A stretch of 24,000 bases of DNA from an uncultured Methanolobus sp. (GCF_963674485.2 NZ_CAXXKW010000002.1); one strand, 5' to 3'. Positions 1 through 14,497 are shown, counted from the stretch's first letter. The notes: a model not told the origin generated them from the letters alone. Program-made: numbers and translations.

Positions 1-987
<987 letters not shown>

Positions 988-1089
988 AAGCAGATCGGCA
1001 CAACGCCGATCACCACTTACCGGTCAGAAATCGAAAAACTGTCAGATCCGAGATAATCTACATGGATTCAAAAAAGGCGAATCCAGGAA

Positions 1090-1162
1090 GGGCTTGTAGA
1101 TCAGTTGGGAGATCGTCGCCTTTGCAAGGCGAAGGCCCTGGGTTCGAATCCCAGCAAGTCCA
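1090..1162 (+). tRNA. tRNA-Ala (anticodon UGC) in the 16S-23S spacer
   Basis: 73-nt cloverleaf. Acceptor GGGCUUG/CAAGUCC has the G3:U70 Ala identity pair. Anticodon stem tcgcc/ggcga encloses loop UUUGCAA (UGC). T-arm is ctgggttcgaatcccag. No encoded CCA. Confidence 0.95.
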
Positions 1163-1248
1163 TTATTTAGTGCACCCGAGAAGTAACTTTCTCGGGGAAG
1201 GATGAAGTGGCCGTAGCAACAGCGGCTGCAATGAGATCGTGTATATGC

Positions 1249-1288
1249 ATGCATATATCAGACGCTCACTGGACAAAGTGAGATGGAC
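1249..1288 (+). other. 5' arm of the 23S rRNA processing helix
   Basis: 1249-1262 pairs with 4232-4245 (14 bp, one G-U). 1269-1278 pairs with 4216-4225 (10 bp, perfect). 1282-1288 pairs with 4206-4212 (7 bp, one G-U). Small internal loops lie between the segments. Confidence 0.8.
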
Positions 1289-1289
1289 T

Positions 1290-4205
<2,916 letters not shown>

Positions 4206-4245
4206 GTCCGTCTTGCTTTGTCCAGGCGAAATCTGATATGTGCAT
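4206..4245 (+). other. 3' arm of the 23S rRNA processing helix
   Basis: Complementary to 1249-1288, as listed for the 5' arm. Confidence 0.8.
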
Positions 4246-4310
4246 GTTTAATATACATGACCTTATGGTAAAGTATAATATGCGATGGATTCATTCATGA
4301 ATCGCTCATT

Positions 4311-4382
4311 GCCAAGGTGGCGGAGCGGCTACGCAATCGCCTGCAGAGCGATTCCATTCCGGTTCGAATCCGGACCTTGGCT
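4311..4382 (+). tRNA. tRNA-Cys (anticodon GCA) between 23S and 5S
   Basis: 72-nt cloverleaf folded by hand. Acceptor is GCCAAGG/CCUUGGC. D-stem is 3 bp (GCG/CGC). Anticodon stem AUCGC/GCGAU encloses loop CUGCAGA (GCA, with G37). T-stem is UCCGG/CCGGA with loop UUCGAAU. Discriminator is U73. No encoded CCA. Confidence 0.93.
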
Positions 4383-4409
4383 TTATCATTACCATTCATT
4401 ATGAGAGAG

Positions 4410-4532
4410 TTTGGCGGCCATAGCGGCAGGGAGATTCCTGTACCCATCCCGAACACAGAAGATAAGCCTGCCAGCGTTCCTTACTGTACTGAAGTACGAG
4501 AGTCTTCGGGAACTCTGGATCGCTGCCAGCTC
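4410..4532 (+). rRNA. rrf: 5S rRNA; ends approximate
   Basis: The 5S hallmark cccatcccgaacacagaagataagcc is at 4443-4468. The terminal helix ttggcggc/gctgccag closes a ~122-nt molecule. Confidence 0.93.
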
Positions 4533-7909: not shown

Positions 7910-9379
7910 ATGTCATCACAATTTGATATAATTCATAAGGATGCAGCAGGGCGTATTGGTAAGCTGACAACCCCGCATGGAGTGGTTGAAACTCCTACTG
8001 TAATGCCTGTCATTAATCCTAATATCCAGACAGTAAAACCCTCTGAGATGAGGGAATTCGGTGCTGAGATACTTATCACCAACTCATATATCATCTATCG
8101 TAAGGATGAATTAAGGGAAAAGGCACTGAAAGATGGTCTGCATGCATTACTCGATTTTGACGGTCCCCTTATGACAGACTCTGGTTCATTCCAGCTATCG
8201 GTCTATGGTGAAGTCGAGGTCACAAATGAAATGATAATCAATTTCCAGCAGAAGATAGGAACAGACATAGGCGTTCCTCTTGATATTCCTACACATCCTG
8301 ATGTGTCTTATGAAAAGGCAAAGGAAGATATGGATATCACAATACAGCGTCTTAAGGAAGCAAGGGAACTTGTGAAAGGTGACATGCTTCTGGCAGGTCC
8401 TGTGCAAGGTGCTATTTACAAGGATCTCCGTGAGGAGTGTGCCCGTGAGCTTTCAGAGGTAGGCTTTGATGTATATCCATTTGGAGCTGTGGTCCCATTG
8501 ATGGAGTCCTATCGCTATGCTGATCTTGTAGATGTAATTGCTTCCGCTAAAAAAGGCCTCGACCCCACAGCACCTGTCCATCTGTTTGGTGCAGGACACC
8601 CGATGATGTTCGCATTGGCAGTTGCTCTTGGATGTGATCTTTTCGATTCTGCTGCATATGCTCTTTATGCGAAGGACAGGCGTTACATCACTTCAAGAGG
8701 AACATATCATGTAGACCAGCTTAAGTATCTGCCATGCTCATGTCCTGTATGTCTGGCTCACACAGCGGAAGAATTGAAAAAGGCTCACAACTGCACCGAG
8801 CTTCTTGCCAGGCACAACCTCTATGTAACTTTTGAAGAGGTTCGTGAGGTCAAGCAGGCCATATGGGAAGGCAACCTCCTTGAGCTTGTGGAGCAGAGAT
8901 GCCGGGCTCATCCAAGGATGCTTGAAGCCCTTAAGCAGATGTATACATATTCTCCATGGCTGGAGCAGTGTGATCCATCATCCAAATCCACATTATTCTA
9001 TTGTGGTCCAGAGTCTGCCAGACGTCCGGAAGTCCTGCGTTTCAACAGGCAGCTTGAAAGGTTTACCATAGAAGGTTCGGCTTTGATACGGGCTTACCCG
9101 ACAAAGAGGGACAGTGATTATGACAACGTCCTGATATTCAAACCACCATTCGGGTCTTACCCGCAGGAACTTGCAGAGGTCTATCCGTTCAATGCTGAAG
9201 TTGTAAGGACTCCTGATTATGAATCCCTTGAGAGTGCTTATGAGAACACCATCAGGCTTGTGGAACTGAACCCTAAGGCAACATTCACTTTCCTGATGCA
9301 GGATAAATTAGAGCATCCTCTTGTAGAAAAACTTGAAAAGATGGATAACTTTACAGTTATCTCTTCCCAGAAAGAGTAA
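7910..9379 (+). CDS. tgtA: Archaeosine tRNA-guanine(15) transglycosylase (ArcTGT), short form without a PUA domain
   Basis: 489 aa. It has the TGT N-terminus (GRIGKLTTPHGVVETPTVMPV), a catalytic Asp context (LMTDSGSFQ) and the zinc site C-S-C-P-V-C...H (LPCSCPVCLAH). Confidence 0.9.
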   Translation: MSSQFDIIHKDAAGRIGKLTTPHGVVETPTVMPVINPNIQTVKPSEMREFGAEILITNSYIIYRKDELREKALKDGLHALLDFDGPLMTDSGSFQLSVYGEVEVTNEMIINFQQKIGTDIGVPLDIPTHPDVSYEKAKEDMDITIQRLKEARELVKGDMLLAGPVQGAIYKDLREECARELSEVGFDVYPFGAVVPLMESYRYADLVDVIASAKKGLDPTAPVHLFGAGHPMMFALAVALGCDLFDSAAYALYAKDRRYITSRGTYHVDQLKYLPCSCPVCLAHTAEELKKAHNCTELLARHNLYVTFEEVREVKQAIWEGNLLELVEQRCRAHPRMLEALKQMYTYSPWLEQCDPSSKSTLFYCGPESARRPEVLRFNRQLERFTIEGSALIRAYPTKRDSDYDNVLIFKPPFGSYPQELAEVYPFNAEVVRTPDYESLESAYENTIRLVELNPKATFTFLMQDKLEHPLVEKLEKMDNFTVISSQKE

Positions 9380-9537
9380 AGTCAATTCTCTATCAAAAAG
9401 GAAATAAAACCTGGTTATCATTTGATACTCTGGTTCTTATTGTCCAATTCTTTTTTATTTTATACCTGTCCGACTCATTTTTAGTCCGACCACCCTAATA
9501 CTAATATACGATACTGGAAATTAGGAGCTATAATCTA

Positions 9538-10497
9538 TTGGTGATGATATACTTGGTTTCGACTTCAGGCTCAAAAACACGGAATCCTTATCTTGAATTG
9601 TTAAGGCCGGAAATAGCGGATATGGATTTTGCCCTTCCTGCTGCAAGTGCTTTGCTGGCATCCTATCTTGCAATAGGGGCACTGCCAGATCCGATTCTTT
9701 TCATAATAGCGGTTATCGGGGGCTACGCAGCGATAACAAGTTCCTATGTATATAATGACTGTTGTGATGTCGATATAGATCAGATTAATCTTCCAAACCG
9801 CCCGTTGGTGTCTGATAAACTAAGTCGCGGACAGGCTATGAAGTATGCAGGGCTGTTATTTTTAATAGCAAGTGTGGCAGCTCTCTATCTGAATCCTGAA
9901 TCTTTTGTGGTATTGGTGATAGCAGTCGTCACTATAAGTATATACTCAAAACTTGCAAAAAGACTGACATTTCTTAGTTTCGTACCTGTGGGAATAGCTT
10001 ACGGGCTTGTACCTATAGGTATCTGGCTGGCATTCAATCCGGCAGGAATTCTCAGGAATCCCGATTATGGTTCCATACTTCCTCTGCCTGCCATATTCCT
10101 TGGCCTAATGATGTGTTTCACTGACTGGGGTTTCACATTGTCCGGTGTGGCAAGGGATGTGGAAGGCGACAGAGCCAGAGGCGCACCGACATTTCCGGTG
10201 ACATTCGGAGTTCCAGCAACCTCTAAGTTTGTAACTATCATGTGGGTTGTAGGTGTCATAGCCTCAATTGCCATCGGATTGACTGCAAAGATAGGGCCCA
10301 TATATTTTGCAGGTGCACTGCTTGCAGGTGGGTGGATGCTCACGCAGTCATTTGATTTTATAAAGAACCCGACACATGAACGTGGAGGAAGGCTATTTCT
10401 CCAGGGCTCCAGATACAGGGGTCTCATGTTTGGTTCTCTCATACTTGATGTAATACTTTGCATACTTGTTCCGGCATATTCCGGTATATTATGGTAA
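9538..10497 (+). CDS. UbiA-superfamily aromatic/lipid prenyltransferase; divergent, substrate unknown
   Basis: 319 aa and very hydrophobic. The first Asp-rich motif is NDCCDVDIDQINLPNRP, with a second acidic patch ARDVEGD. The start is uncertain (TTG 9538, GTG 9541 or ATG 9544); GGAG lies at 9525-9528. Confidence 0.85.
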   Translation: MVMIYLVSTSGSKTRNPYLELLRPEIADMDFALPAASALLASYLAIGALPDPILFIIAVIGGYAAITSSYVYNDCCDVDIDQINLPNRPLVSDKLSRGQAMKYAGLLFLIASVAALYLNPESFVVLVIAVVTISIYSKLAKRLTFLSFVPVGIAYGLVPIGIWLAFNPAGILRNPDYGSILPLPAIFLGLMMCFTDWGFTLSGVARDVEGDRARGAPTFPVTFGVPATSKFVTIMWVVGVIASIAIGLTAKIGPIYFAGALLAGGWMLTQSFDFIKNPTHERGGRLFLQGSRYRGLMFGSLILDVILCILVPAYSGILW

Positions 10498-10522
10498 TAA
10501 TTAGGTGTTTACGAGGTTCAAA

Positions 10523-11680
10523 ATGGATGCAGATATCATTGTAATAGGGGCTTCCCCGGCAGGGGTCATGGCAGCACGGAATGCATCGGCTAAAGGCTGC
10601 AAAGTAATCCTTCTCGATAAAAAAGAAGCTGCAGGTGTACCTACCCATCCGGCAAACACTTTTTTCAAAGGGATGTTTGATCGCACAGGTGAGGAAGTTG
10701 ACCAGAGTTATGTTATCAAGAATCTCAAAGGTGCCTACATAATAGCACCATCCGGCAGGAATGTCATTTTTGAGGGGGATGCTTATTTCCTTGACAGGAA
10801 GAAATTTGATGAGTTTTACATTCGCCATGCAAAAGAAGCAGGTGCAGACGTTCGCTTCGGAATCGAAGTTCTCAATGTTCTCCGGGTCGATGGCGGTTTC
10901 ACAGTAAGCACCTCAAAGGGCAAGATCAAGTGTAAGCTCGTTATTGTTTCAGATGGTATAAACTCCCGGATAGGTGCCCTTCTGGGTATGATACCTATCA
11001 AATACCCTCAGGACATTGCCTGGTCCCTTGAAGCAGAGATCGAAGCTGAAGGCATTGGTGAGCCCGATATGTTCGAATATTACGTGGGCAACCATGCACC
11101 AGGATGGAAATCCACTTATTCCCCATGTGGTGGTAATAGGGCAACACTTGGTATGTATGTCCGCAGGCATGGCAAGGATGTTTCTGATTTCTTCGATGCA
11201 TGGCTTGAAAAGTTCAAGACATTAAAGGGGCTTGATGAAGTAAAGATCATCAGTAAATCCGTAGGTGGTGATCCTATAGTTGCAATTCCAGGTGAGATAG
11301 TCGCCGACGGTGTAATGATAACGGGTGGTTCTGCTGCCCAGTCAGGTATAGGATACGGCATGCATGCAGGACAGATGTGTGGTGATGTTGCTGCCGATGC
11401 AATTGCAAAAGGTAATCTGTCAAAAAGCTTCCTTTCCGAATATAGGAAACGCTGGAATGCCGCATACAGGACTGAGTACTACCTTGGAAGGTTTGCCATG
11501 GAGACTCTCAGGAAAATGACTGACAAGGAGATCGATGAGCTTATGAAGGTCTTTGAAGGAGAGGACTTGAAGGTCCTTGGCGGAAGTCCTTTCAACCAGG
11601 CATTACAGGTATCAAAAATGATATTGAAAAATAACCCTTCATCCATACTTTCATACAGGGCTATCTTCAGGACGAAGTGA
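10523..11680 (+). CDS. Geranylgeranyl-reductase-family FAD-dependent oxidoreductase
   Basis: The N-terminus MDADIIVIGASPAGVMAA...VILLDKK is an FAD-binding GxGxxG fold, and the later GDAAG-like region is GGSAAQSG. I prefer ATG 10523 over the ORF-track GTG at 10505. It starts 26 nt after the UbiA stop. Confidence 0.85.
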   Translation: MDADIIVIGASPAGVMAARNASAKGCKVILLDKKEAAGVPTHPANTFFKGMFDRTGEEVDQSYVIKNLKGAYIIAPSGRNVIFEGDAYFLDRKKFDEFYIRHAKEAGADVRFGIEVLNVLRVDGGFTVSTSKGKIKCKLVIVSDGINSRIGALLGMIPIKYPQDIAWSLEAEIEAEGIGEPDMFEYYVGNHAPGWKSTYSPCGGNRATLGMYVRRHGKDVSDFFDAWLEKFKTLKGLDEVKIISKSVGGDPIVAIPGEIVADGVMITGGSAAQSGIGYGMHAGQMCGDVAADAIAKGNLSKSFLSEYRKRWNAAYRTEYYLGRFAMETLRKMTDKEIDELMKVFEGEDLKVLGGSPFNQALQVSKMILKNNPSSILSYRAIFRTK

Positions 11681-11683
11681 ACG

Positions 11684-12829
11684 ATGAAGAACAAGTATTA
11701 CTTTTACAGGAATCCATTTTTCAAGGTATATGCCCAGATAGAGGATGGCCGGGTAAAAATGAAGACTTCCGGTATCGCGTCCTCTATCATGGGTTCTTAC
11801 GTTTCGGAAATGATGGAGATATTTGAGGATACAAAACCTTCAAAAGTGGAAAAGAACCAGTTGATATATTCCACCTGGATGCCTCCTATACCCAGCAAGG
11901 CATTTGACAGGCTTGTTGCAAGCCAGATGAGTGCGATGAGGGGTAAATTCGTTCCGGAACAGATCACAATTTCAATTACCGAAGAGTGCCCTAACAGGTG
12001 TATACACTGTGCTCTTCCTGATACCAAGAACAAAGCAAGGCTCAGTCCCGATGCTGTGAAAAGTGTCATCGACCAAACCCAGAAGATGGGTACGACCCTC
12101 ATTATATTTGATGGGGGGGAACCTCTGTTATATGATGGCCTTGAGGATCTCATAAGTTATGTCGATAAATCCCGTGCGATTCCGGGTCTTTTCACATCCG
12201 GTGTGGGCATGACTCCGCAACGTGCATTGAGCCTGAAGGACGCGGGTCTCTCCATGCTCAGTGTGAGTCTTGACAGCGCAAATGAAGAAGGTCACGATTA
12301 CATGCGTGGAAGGCCGGGCGTGTTTAACGATGCTGTCAATGCCATAAAGAATGGTCTGGATGCAGGCTTGCTGGTTGGCATTTACGTTGTTCTTTCACCA
12401 AGGAATGTTGATGAGCTTGATGAATTCTATGAGCTTGCAAAGGAACTCGGTGTGCATGAACTTTCTTTCTATGAAATAGTCCCAACCGGAAGATGGCAGG
12501 GTCATGAAAAAGAAGTTCTCTCAGCCGAAGGCCTGAAAAAGTTCGATGATTTCGTAGAACGCAAATCTCATGCTCAAGGCCCACGTGTTTTCCCGATTCC
12601 TCAGATCTTAAGGAAAATGGGGTGTTTTGCAGGCAGAAAATGGCTTCATGTAACTCCTGAAGGCGATGTACTTCCATGTGCATGCATGCCAAAACCATAT
12701 GGTAACATCCATGAGGAAAGCCTGGCTTCCATATGGAAAAAGATATACAAAGATCCTGTTTTCACTTCAGGTCCCTGTCTTATGAGGGATTCTGAATTTA
12801 GGACGGTCCATCTCGGACTGGAAAAATAG
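11684..12829 (+). CDS. Radical SAM protein with a SPASM/twitch-like C-terminal Cys motif
   Basis: 381 aa. It has CPNRCIHC (CxxxCxxC), a GGEPLL SAM-binding motif, and a C-terminal GCFAGRKWLHVTPEGDVLPCACMP. The ATG is 3 nt after the preceding stop. Confidence 0.85.
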   Translation: MKNKYYFYRNPFFKVYAQIEDGRVKMKTSGIASSIMGSYVSEMMEIFEDTKPSKVEKNQLIYSTWMPPIPSKAFDRLVASQMSAMRGKFVPEQITISITEECPNRCIHCALPDTKNKARLSPDAVKSVIDQTQKMGTTLIIFDGGEPLLYDGLEDLISYVDKSRAIPGLFTSGVGMTPQRALSLKDAGLSMLSVSLDSANEEGHDYMRGRPGVFNDAVNAIKNGLDAGLLVGIYVVLSPRNVDELDEFYELAKELGVHELSFYEIVPTGRWQGHEKEVLSAEGLKKFDDFVERKSHAQGPRVFPIPQILRKMGCFAGRKWLHVTPEGDVLPCACMPKPYGNIHEESLASIWKKIYKDPVFTSGPCLMRDSEFRTVHLGLEK

Positions 12830-12897: not shown

Positions 12898-13806
12898 TTA
12901 TTTCAGGAATCCTGATCTCTGGAGAGCCATCAGGTTCTCCATAGTAAGCTTTCCACCGGACTTGAACTTGTCAAAGATGTCTTCTGCATCCTTGCGTGCG
13001 TCTGCCCTTGCAGCTTCCTTCTTACCGTCGAAATCTCCTTTCTTCATCTTGCGGAGTTCCTTGTCAATGTCACGGATCTCTTTCTGGGCTGCAATGAAGA
13101 GTTTGTGCTGTTCGTCAGCTTTTTCCTGGAATTGAACGAATTCTTTGTGAGCAGCATCAGATTCTGCGCGAATCTTGTCGGCCTCTTTGAAGGTGGTGAT
13201 CATCTTGTCATGATATTCCTGTGCCTTCTGTGCATACTCTGAAAGTGTAGCGTGATGATTTGAAGCTTCGTCCCTGATCTCCTGTGCTTCGTCCAGCAGT
13301 TTCTTGAGTTCTTCATTTCCTTCAAGTTGCTGTTTCTTTACCACATATTGCTTCTGGAGTTCAGTGATCTTGTTGACCAATTCTCTTTCCTTGTTGGTTG
13401 TGAGGACTTCTGTCTGCTGTGCAAACTCAAGTCTGTCGATCTCCTTGCGTATATCTTTGATAGAAGGGCCACCAAGGTTATTCTCATTACGGATCTGGTC
13501 TATCTTGGCAAAAACGTCGTTCGCCTTGTTGTTGATCTCATCACGGAGTACCTTGTATTCCTTAACCTTCTCGTTGTTCTCGTCACGGAGTACCTTGTAT
13601 TCCTGTGCCTCGTTGATAAGATCCTTAGTCTTCTTGTTCAGCTCATTGCGCTTTGATGCAAGTGTGCTTGCCTCAGCATTAAGCTCGTTACGTTTCTCTT
13701 TGTATTCTTCTGACTGGGTCTTAAGCTCAGTCTTCTTGTCGTTAAGTTCTTTTATCATTTCTTTATTATCCTCCCGGTCCAGCAAAAGAGCTGGCATTTC
13801 ATGCAT
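12898..13806 (-). CDS. Archaeal coiled-coil protein (K/E-rich, COG1340-like), function unknown
   Basis: Long heptad-like K/E/Q/L-rich sequence. I place the start at MHEMPALL (ATG 13806 or 13797) because the longer ORF-track start (13872) lies inside serB. It has an internal 42-nt duplication. Confidence 0.7.
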   Translation of the reverse strand: MHEMPALLLDREDNKEMIKELNDKKTELKTQSEEYKEKRNELNAEASTLASKRNELNKKTKDLINEAQEYKVLRDENNEKVKEYKVLRDEINNKANDVFAKIDQIRNENNLGGPSIKDIRKEIDRLEFAQQTEVLTTNKERELVNKITELQKQYVVKKQQLEGNEELKKLLDEAQEIRDEASNHHATLSEYAQKAQEYHDKMITTFKEADKIRAESDAAHKEFVQFQEKADEQHKLFIAAQKEIRDIDKELRKMKKGDFDGKKEAARADARKDAEDIFDKFKSGGKLTMENLMALQRSGFLK

Positions 13807-14497
13807 CTCTAATGCACGATACTTGGCCTTTTTCCGATTCCAACAACTGGATAACCGGTATAACTGCTTCAAGGTTCTTTTCTGTTATGACAATATCAGC
13901 ATGCTCATGGAGAATCGGTTTGGAATTGAATGCTATGGCATATCTTGCCCTTTTAAAAATACATATGTCATTGGCACCGTCACCAACCACAATACATTCT
14001 TCAGGTTCTAATCCATATTTTCGGGATATTTCTTCAAGAACATGTTCTTTAGAACACTGTCCTGTAAGAGGGCCCTTTACCTCTCCTGTCAGACATCCGT
14101 TGTCTACCAGTAGTTCATTTGAAACCACATGATCCATTCCAAGTGTTTCACCAACACGCTCTGCAGCTATGGTAAATCCACCGGAGATCATTGCGGTTTT
14201 ATAACCTCGGGATTTCAGGTATTTGACAAGTTCTTTCGCACCGGGCATAAAAGGCATTTTGTCAAGCGCAACATGGGCATCATCGAGTGTAAGTCCTTTT
14301 AGCAGTCTCACCCTCTCAACAAGTGCATTCGAAAAATCAAGTTCTCCACGCATTGCTTTTTCTGTAATAGAGGCGACTTCGTCTCCCACTCCGGCGGCAT
14401 GTGCAAGCTCGTCAATGGTTTCAGCATCAATAAGGGTGCTATCCATATCAAAAACTACTAACTTTATCCTATCAGAATTATTGCTGGTACGACTCAC
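13799..14497 (-). CDS. serB: Phosphoserine phosphatase (HAD superfamily)
   Basis: 232 aa. HAD motifs are FDMDSTLI (I), MISGGF (II) and GDGANDI (III). SerB-type cap region is ITEKAMRGELDFSNAL. Confidence 0.88.
   Translation of the reverse strand: MSRTSNNSDRIKLVVFDMDSTLIDAETIDELAHAAGVGDEVASITEKAMRGELDFSNALVERVRLLKGLTLDDAHVALDKMPFMPGAKELVKYLKSRGYKTAMISGGFTIAAERVGETLGMDHVVSNELLVDNGCLTGEVKGPLTGQCSKEHVLEEISRKYGLEPEECIVVGDGANDICIFKRARYAIAFNSKPILHEHADIVITEKNLEAVIPVIQLLESEKGQVSCIRDA

Follow-up and report, generated by a model that had tools for sequence, protein, structure and literature searches.

We consider a window of 24,000 nucleotides from an uncultured Methanolobus sp. (contig C2, positions 471409-495408 of its genome), in which three consecutive genes on the plus strand, at window positions 9538-12829, encode a membrane prenyltransferase of the UbiA superfamily, a flavoprotein with the fold of geranylgeranyl reductase (GGR) and a radical S-adenosylmethionine (SAM) enzyme. 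The three genes are confirmed as a real and conserved unit. From the order of the genes, their domains and motifs, their phyletic distribution and the linkage of paralogues, all of them grounds of comparative inference, we arrive at a reading that is unproven and to which we give an even chance: the unit would serve prenylation and tailoring in the making of methanophenazine or a similar lipophilic electron carrier. The flavoprotein subfamily is called GGRL below, and the radical-SAM gene rSAM.

The UbiA gene lies at 9538-10497 (+). Its open reading frame (ORF) opens with TTG at 9538, which gives 319 residues, while translation more probably starts at ATG 9544, which has a GGAG 16 nt before it. 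GGRL follows at 10523-11680 (+; 385 residues) with its ATG behind a GAGGT; the longest ORF begins at GTG 10505, and the orthologues all align from the methionine of ATG 10523. The rSAM gene occupies 11684-12829 (+; 381 residues). The two gaps are 25 nt and 3 nt (TGA-ACG-ATG). The sequence-only reading of this DNA, which had given the first gap as about 26 nt, is thus confirmed in its strand and tight spacing, and its three domain calls are borne out by the Pfam scores and the folds described below. We read the three genes as a single operon.

Does this arrangement hold in other genomes? We count 80 named genome loci with a UbiA alignment, of which 72 have at least 2.5 kb of sequence downstream. 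The full UbiA-GGRL-rSAM block is present in 59 of the 72 (Methanosarcina, Methanolobus, Methanococcoides, Methanohalophilus and Methanomethylovorans), UbiA-GGRL in 10 (of the ANME-2 and Ca. Methanocomedens types; ANME, anaerobic methanotrophic archaea) and UbiA alone in 3. The contiguity is kept across genera at 58-69% protein identity and, with the two short gaps, upholds the operon-like packing proposed earlier. In other lineages the genes are rearranged. GGRL and rSAM are adjacent with UbiA elsewhere in a lineage without Mcr (f7, 'Methanocellales archaeon'); in Methanotrichaceae the three are scattered or separated by 7-8 kb; and the order is UbiA-rSAM-GGRL-ThiC-UbiA in a lineage with multiple Mcr (f30). 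In Ca. Serpentinarchaeum Met12 and its relatives, GGRL is found with two to four radical-SAM genes, a degenerate UbiA-like gene and a gene for an NMT1/THI5-type binding-fold protein. Two unrelated metagenome contigs add further variants, one with an rSAM of the same N-terminal domain next to GGRL and the other with GGRL near an rSAM-UbiA pair. Pairwise adjacency has thus survived independent rearrangement in at least five families, and because it persists through so many rearrangements it argues strongly for one shared pathway. That the three genes are mere neighbours with no common pathway is very improbable. The predicted complex of rSAM with GGRL scores 0.00, which would suit such a coincidence, though this score neither supports nor disproves a complex; the gaps, the contiguity in 59 of 72 loci at 58-69% identity and the adjacency across families all speak against it.

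The first protein belongs to the UbiA superfamily (PF01040, 147.6 bits against a gathering threshold of 34.2) and has both Asp-rich motifs. The sequence-only reading took the first motif to be divergent; this does not hold, as NDCCDVDID fits the canonical NDxxDxxxD and is nearly the same as the NDYFDVDID of the digeranylgeranylglyceryl phosphate (DGGGP) synthase encoded in the same genome. The second motif, DVEGD (DxxxD), is intact, and both are conserved across the orthologues. None of the three proteins reaches an NCBIfam equivalog cut-off. In that scan the best profile for UbiA is PRK12884 (114.5 bits, cut-off 269), and the DGGGP synthase models give 88.6 bits (NF009521, cut-off 296) and 79.7 bits (NF009522, cut-off 353). 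The models for prenylation of aromatic compounds are all far below their cut-offs (4-hydroxybenzoate 61.6-72; MqnP 66.2, cut-off 430), and so are heme O synthase CtaB/CyoE (78.8, cut-off 210) and ChlG (56.9, cut-off 313). The nearest solved structure is the DGGGP synthase of M. jannaschii (PDB accession code: 6m31, E 9e-15), followed by ChlG (E 8.5e-5). By sequence, then, the operon UbiA belongs to an orthologue group of Methanosarcinia type, separate from DGGGP synthase, and it probably descends from ether-forming prenyltransferases of that kind. Of the four complete UbiA genes in the genome, which also has a UbiA fragment, one encodes a true DGGGP synthase (C2:661637-662530; 374.8 bits against the cut-off of 296, compared with 88.6 for the operon protein), and the possibility raised earlier, that the operon UbiA would fall squarely among DGGGP synthases as the only copy in the genome, is thereby set aside.

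For the flavoprotein, the evidence of the fold and that of the motifs point in different directions. The AlphaFold2 (AF2) model of GGRL (predicted local distance difference test, pLDDT, 91) superposes on the GGR of T. acidophilum (PDB accession code: 3OZ2) with a template modelling (TM) score of 0.86 and on that of S. acidocaldarius (SaGGR) with 0.80-0.83, and the dinucleotide-binding N-terminus is present, with GxSPAG and an acidic residue at the end of beta-2. Modelling of GGRL with FAD gives a score of 0.92, where the best control gives 0.89, and yields no verdict on FAD binding. GGRL scores 121.6 bits on TIGR02032, below the cut-off of 158.8; PF22578 (GGR_cat) is absent among its Pfam matches; and a look-up in the ESM Atlas returns generic FAD-oxidoreductase clusters only. 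The genome encodes four other, canonical GGRs at 224-248 bits on TIGR02032. Alignment of the orthologue and paralogue family with these four and with 3OZ2 reveals three motif exchanges: PA(N/D)T at the position of the GGR catalytic Cys (xCGG/xCxE), PGWKxTxSP in place of YxWxFP, and GG(A/S)AGQ with a six-residue deletion in place of GDAAG. All three are found in 15 of 15 family members, and the canonical motifs in all four GGR paralogues. The boundary of the subfamily is sharp: a profile search of 1.84 billion representatives returns 21 clusters of the PGWK type without GGR motifs, and after a step from 255 to 251 bits the proteins with the canonical Cys, YxWxFP and GDAAG begin. With about 21 clusters, GGRL is thus a small subfamily with clear limits. 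The earlier description as a GGR-like flavoprotein stands as to the fold, and the further step to a prenyl-chain reductase does not, as the Cys, YxWxFP and GD motifs are lacking; since the catalytic motifs of GGR are missing, a prenyl-reductase role for GGRL is an assumption.

The third protein is a radical-SAM enzyme (PF04055, 83 bits against 29.5) with its CX3CX2C motif at C102, C106 and C109, all three invariant in an alignment of 42 sequences. In its C-terminal part the only invariant cysteines of that alignment are C314, C332 and C365. The Pfam SPASM family PF13186 matches (36 bits against 21.5), and the CxxCx5C block seen in the AhbD of the same genome is missing, as is the full SPASM pattern of seven cysteines for two auxiliary clusters. 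The auxiliary-cluster domain (SPASM or twitch-like) assigned earlier to this gene is thus upheld and can be narrowed: from its sequence, the enzyme is twitch-like with one auxiliary cluster. Its best equivalog models are NirJ2 (133 bits) and AhbD (125), both with cut-offs of 500, followed by PqqE (102 against 381) and AhbC (97, cut-offs 500-650). The comparison with AhbD and PqqE suggested by the sequence-only reading thus ends far below the curated cut-offs and places the protein in neither family; a true AhbD (597 bits) is encoded elsewhere in the genome. The N-terminal domain consists of 90 conserved residues with a beta-beta-beta-alpha topology and an invariant STWxPPxPSxxFxR, and a Pfam search with it gives no family match, PqqD and the RiPP recognition element (RRE; RiPP, ribosomally synthesised and post-translationally modified peptide) included, even at E up to 10.

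The fold of rSAM raises the possibility of a different product. The AF2 model (pLDDT 93) is closest to SkfB, CteB, BlsE, SuiB and PqqE, and three of these (SkfB, CteB and SuiB) are RRE-bearing RiPP maturases that match over the whole length. The operon might then make an undescribed prenylated product, possibly derived from a peptide that the N-terminal domain recognises and UbiA prenylates. The topology of that domain suits a recognition domain, and a wider module of GGRL and rSAM occurs in non-methanogens such as Met12 (PMC11176372). We regard this product as improbable all the same: the fold matches have a high root-mean-square deviation of about 8-14 A, the profile search just mentioned found no PqqD/RRE match, neither the 158 nt upstream nor the gaps between the genes contain a plausible small ORF for a precursor peptide, and peptide genes do not adjoin the examined loci of any of the three paralogue groups described next.

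The genome encodes two paralogues of rSAM, each 40% identical to the operon protein. In the tree, the operon rSAM forms a clade (A) that is sister, with support 99/98, to a clade (B) linked to geranylfarnesyl diphosphate (GFPP) synthase. In Methanolobus, Methanohalophilus, Methanotrichaceae, f7 and a Methanosarcina-type genome, the clade B gene (rSAM2 in our genome) comes directly after the gene of a short polyprenyl synthase. On NF040627 (GFPS_Meth; cut-off 600) the synthase of the Methanosarcina-type genome reaches 615 bits and its positional orthologue in Methanolobus (C2:2674676-2675545) 335. The sister of the operon rSAM thus follows the gene of an enzyme of the kind of the M. mazei GFPP synthase (MM_0789) in Methanosarcinaceae, Methanotrichaceae and f7, and this would link the operon to methanophenazine through its paralogue. 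The comparison has its differences: the synthase gene is outside the window, the link is via the paralogue and not the operon's own rSAM, and ANME-2 has the operon without such a synthase. At C2:2664000-2683999 (L029), a CcmE-like gene, the GFPP-synthase-like gene and rSAM2 are on one strand, with ahbD, ahbA, ahbB and a precorrin-2 dehydrogenase gene divergent to them and genes of an A-type ATP synthase next. The GFPP-synthase/rSAM2 pair of Methanosarcinaceae sits, in other words, in a cluster of respiratory-cofactor genes.

The other paralogue, rSAM3, is paired with a gene for a KaiC-like ATPase in all Methanolobus loci examined. A placement of rSAM3 in a second UbiA cluster was considered and rejected. 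The UbiA gene concerned is the fragment, a C-terminal piece of 160 residues within C2:2810531-2816847 (L030:6532-12848), which is 3.8 kb away, is flanked by DDE_3 and DDE_Tnp_1 transposase genes and is absent at this locus in four other genomes.

A smaller radical-SAM gene is found 46 kb upstream of the operon (C2:434588-435517, -). It encodes a PTO1314/HpnH-like protein of 324 residues and stands alone between genes for CbiM and an (R)-SAM hydrolase-like protein. The product is 57% identical to the small radical-SAM protein of the Met12 cluster (L046:2837-10546, in a genome of 1.07 Mb), whose seven genes encode three rSAMs of the family, this HpnH/PTO1314-like protein, GGRL, a UbiA-like protein without the NDxxD motif and the binding-fold protein. 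Met12 is a streamlined non-methanogen relying on a multihaem cytochrome and Rnf, yet it keeps all seven. A link to ThiC, whose gene is in the f30 cluster and, in our own genome, near the small radical-SAM gene, was also considered and is judged coincidental, as the own ThiC is a regular one (578 bits) with unrelated neighbours.

We turn to the chemistry. Methanophenazine is 2-hydroxyphenazine ether-linked to a C25 chain, a structure known since 1998, and the first isoprene unit of this ether-joined chain is reportedly saturated. Because the chain is joined by an ether and its first unit reduced after transfer, the pair to be expected consists of a UbiA enzyme that forms ethers and, after it, a flavoprotein of the GGR fold; reduction must come after prenyl transfer, since the donor has to be an allylic diphosphate. 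The chemistry would fit in that the nearest relatives of the operon UbiA are ether-forming enzymes. In the literature read, the one enzyme tied to methanophenazine is GFPP synthase (MM_0789, MA0606; PMC3017947, PMC6315138, PMC8546582), and the pathway was called undeciphered in 2021 (PMC8546582). For M. mazei, Ogawa et al. 2010, as that work is cited in PMC3017947, attribute the C25 product to methanophenazine and not to lipids.

A sequence of four steps can be proposed from these pieces. The GFPP synthase encoded at C2:2674676-2675545 would supply the C25 diphosphate, and UbiA would transfer the chain to the hydroxyl of an aromatic head group or of its precursor to give an aryl ether. GGRL would then act on the attached chain, most obviously by saturating the C2'=C3' bond beside the ether oxygen, although, with the Cys missing from its active site and a Lys and an Asn/Asp conserved in it, its chemistry may differ from that of a classical GGR. 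Finally, rSAM and its GFPP-synthase-linked paralogue would carry out oxygen-independent radical chemistry on the head group or the chain. By analogy with MqnE/MqnC of the futalosine route to menaquinone, they may perhaps build or hydroxylate the ring system.

The futalosine route offers the same combination of enzyme classes throughout: MqnP/MenA of the UbiA family, MenJ as a side-chain reductase of the GGR family, and MqnE/MqnC as radical-SAM ring builders. In both cases a redox ring would be prenylated by a UbiA-type enzyme and one isoprene saturated by a GGR-family flavoprotein, with radical-SAM enzymes in the pathway, and where tested the distribution of the operon complements that of the Mqn genes. 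The operon proteins differ in their scores (66 against 430 bits for MqnP; 32.5 against 700 for MenJ), in a predicted O-ether bond where menaquinone has C-prenylation, and in an rSAM of the SPASM/twitch branch outside the MqnE and MqnC families.

The phyletic distribution gives a separate line of evidence. Each of the three proteins was searched in 401 genomes of the phylum, representing 36 families, with an orthologue threshold of E<=1e-45 for UbiA. UbiA orthologues occur in 52 of 52 Methanosarcinaceae (f1), 2 of 2 ANME-2 (f3), 12 of 12 genomes of f4, which we take to be Methanotrichaceae, 3 of 4 of f7 and 3 of 3 of f30 (at 45-49% identity); at this threshold none is found in the other 31 sampled families. 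GGRL and rSAM orthologues follow the same pattern, with distant versions (30-41% identity) in Met12-like families and Methanonatronarchaeia. For comparison we use HdrE, the cytochrome b subunit of the heterodisulfide reductase that depends on methanophenazine. It is present throughout f1, f3 and f4, and also in f2 and most Methanonatronarchaeia, and no match to it is found in f7, f30 or the Met12-like genomes. In f30, one genome (G272, 'Halobacteriota archaeon') has seven McrA-like matches of at most 94 bits, where canonical McrA gives 215, which suggests multiple divergent genes of the alkyl-CoM-reductase type.

An instructive exception is G228, the sole member of f2, which belongs to the same order, is 99% complete and has both McrA and HdrE. 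It gives no UbiA or GGRL match at E<=1e-45, its best rSAM match reaches only 6.8e-27, and it carries two MqnA/MqnD genes of the futalosine pathway (258 and 198 bits). Archaea of the Ca. Methanoperedens type use menaquinone and lack methanophenazine (PMC5244752), and the pattern of G228 agrees with this. Conversely, MqnA/D are absent in the four genomes tested that have the operon genes or distant versions of them (G015, G037, G272 and G006). The three f7 genomes tested among those keeping operon genes have a complex-I-type NuoH/FpoH at 350-375 bits, and MqnA/D are not found in two of them, both of those tested. Since a complex-I-type FpoH/NuoH is present, f7 should need some lipophilic carrier. 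Judged from gene content, the distribution speaks for a membrane electron carrier more than for a function linked to cytochromes or to lipids in general. The sequence-only reading proposed restriction to the methanophenazine- and cytochrome-containing Methanosarcinales as the point to check. The outcome favours methanophenazine, as at the thresholds used no orthologue is found in the sampled families of cytochrome-less methanogens or in G228. Orthologues do occur in lineages without Mcr or HdrE. Because of the latter the product is not tied to methanogenesis as such.

The same comparison separates the UbiA paralogues. Besides the true DGGGP synthase, a PRK13591-type paralogue has an orthologue in the menaquinone-type G228 and none found in ANME-2, while the best relative of the fourth is in family f12, where the three genes are absent and HdrE gives no match, and it has no relative in a Methanosarcina-type genome. 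As these three other full paralogues show a non-matching role or distribution, the operon UbiA is favoured: if the methanophenazine prenyltransferase is of the UbiA family, the operon copy would be the only one in the genome with a fitting distribution.

Could the operon instead serve the cytochromes, making a heme-O-like prenylated heme with rSAM acting in the manner of AhbC, AhbD or NirJ? NirJ2 and AhbD are its best profile matches, rSAM2 lies beside the CcmE-like gene and divergent to ahbD-ahbA-ahbB, and the heme O synthase score of UbiA (78.8) is near that for DGGGP synthase (88.6). These scores, however, are far under the cut-offs (125-133 against 500; 78.8 against 210), the single auxiliary cluster is unlike the complete SPASM pattern that AhbD of this genome shows, and in G228, which has both HdrE and Mcr, neither an orthologue of the three proteins nor a close relative of rSAM was found. 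These methanogens are not known to make prenylated hemes, and we consider a tetrapyrrole product quite unlikely. Chlorophyll synthesis by ChlG, ChlP and BchE employs the same trio of enzyme classes, and ChlG is the second-best structure match of UbiA. The match is a weak one (E 8.5e-5; 57 against 313 bits), there is no tetrapyrrole context at the locus, and BchE is a B12-binding radical-SAM enzyme, which the operon rSAM is not.

A closer parallel is the lipid pair of DGGGP synthase and GGR (6m31; 3OZ2, 3ATQ), which has the same two folds in the same succession, an ether-forming membrane prenyltransferase and then a GGR-fold flavoprotein. The operon UbiA keeps both Asp-rich motifs of such a pair, and the superposition of GGRL on 3OZ2 at TM 0.86 was given above. 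The operon might on this ground make or remodel a membrane lipid, for example a C25-containing or otherwise modified archaeol, in place of a redox cofactor: UbiA would then add prenyl chains to glycerol as a further ether-forming enzyme beside DGGGP synthase, the chains would be tailored by GGRL, and rSAM would form a C-C or C-O bond in the manner of the tetraether and macrocyclic-archaeol synthase GDGT-MAS. The nearest characterised relatives of UbiA and GGRL are indeed these lipid enzymes, GDGT-MAS is among the fold matches of the rSAM model (rank 39), and the link of the paralogue to a C25 synthase would also suit C25 lipids. Other features speak against it. Both operon proteins are below the family cut-offs, GGRL has lost the catalytic Cys, YxWxFP and GDAAG, an rSAM gene joins the operon, and the genome already holds the full lipid set with the true DGGGP synthase and four canonical GGRs. 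The lipid pair occurs in all archaea, whereas the operon is confined to few lineages, with no match in the other 31 sampled families or in G228 of the same order. The GDGT-MAS match is weak (TM 0.50) and to a far larger protein, and the C25 product of M. mazei is assigned to methanophenazine in the work of Ogawa et al. 2010 as PMC3017947 cites it. A lipid product seems to us about as improbable as a peptide-derived one.

Several points weigh against methanophenazine or a like carrier as the product. The roles of all three proteins are proposed from comparison. GGRL is without the catalytic Cys, YxWxFP and GD motifs of the characterised GGRs, which leaves its reductase role unproven, and the N-terminal domain and overall fold of the rSAM model resemble RiPP maturases with a peptide-recognition domain, a resemblance that points to a possible peptide substrate. 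Some lineages with no HdrE match (f7, f30 and the Met12-like genomes) also have orthologues or distant versions of the genes; ANME-2 keeps the operon genes, yet no GFPS-type synthase above 121 bits is found there; and since relatedness makes the genomes non-independent, any trait of the clade could underlie the phyletic pattern. The rSAM-GGRL complex score belongs on this side as well.

Other genes also compete for the proposed roles. A canonical GGR (TIGR02032, 242 bits; C2:1067261-1068400, -) is encoded just downstream of hdrD/hdrE (C2:1069747-1071793, -) on the same strand, with two unannotated ORFs of 207 and 212 residues in between, and it is a rival candidate for the reductase of the methanophenazine side chain. 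In M. acetivorans, the GGR-annotated MA0691 and MA0692 are 3.3- and 6.1-fold up in direct interspecies electron transfer (DIET; PMC8546582, Table S1); they may or may not correspond to the hdrED-linked GGR. Published transcriptomics of the same species shows the UbiA gene MA4010 raised 35-fold in DIET and lowered in an rnf mutant, with MA2684 also up. Neither can be taken as the operon's UbiA, as their neighbours are genes for a methyltransferase, an HTH regulator, purH and an integrase; the UbiA genes that the transcriptomics singles out are therefore not those of the operon, a further point on the negative side.

A bolder version of the methanophenazine proposal is possible, although we think it rather more doubtful than right. 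The operon, the GFPP-synthase-linked paralogue, the KaiC-linked paralogue and the small HpnH/PTO1314-like radical-SAM protein might together be a complete methanophenazine pathway, independent of phz genes and of oxygen, in which twitch-type rSAMs, as a new family, build or hydroxylate the phenazine ring and the Cys-less GGRL performs a new tailoring of the prenyl ether; the module would then mark methanophenazine-like carriers beyond the methanogens, in Met12-like, f7 and multi-Mcr archaea. The genome has two genes of the PhzF family (PF02567; C2:3014470-3015225, +, and C2:3365657-3366412, -) at about 230 bits each. PhzF was tried as a marker of phenazine synthesis and proved uninformative, as the family also matches in M. 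jannaschii, our control without methanophenazine.

Methanophenazine is the membrane electron carrier of the Methanosarcinales, the source of most acetoclastic and methylotrophic methane, and is presumed to serve the ANME-2 methane oxidisers as well. In the methanophenazine literature searched we found no published description of the operon, and its genes are good but unproven candidates. Being conserved in genetically tractable hosts, they make the question of the pathway directly testable, and they could serve as genomic markers to tell uncultured archaea with a methanophenazine-like carrier from those with menaquinone. Two of the proteins are of biochemical interest in themselves: the flavoprotein because it combines the GGR fold with loss of the catalytic Cys, and the radical-SAM enzyme because its family has a new N-terminal domain.

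Within the window, the operon is preceded by tgtA (7910-9379) and followed by a convergent DUF7121 gene (12898-13872, -), and its G+C content is similar to that of its surroundings. A putative promoter can be read from the letters of the DNA at 9440-9537 (+), an A/T-rich segment with TATA-like stretches at about 9450-9465 (ttttttattttatac) and 9497-9511 (taatactaatatacg). Operon genes are also seen on short contigs in bins of unrelated organisms, one assigned to 'Ca. Syntrophoarchaeum sp.' (L043, G139), whose protein shares a 90% cluster with ANME-2 proteins, and one to 'Anaerolineales bacterium' (L117, a contig of 6.4 kb); both look like binning errors rather than gene transfer. The window itself opens within an rRNA operon (1-4531), with a partial 16S rRNA at its start, a tRNA at 1090-1162, the 23S rRNA at 1285-4211 and the 5S rRNA at 4410-4531, a second tRNA (4311-4382) lying between the last two.

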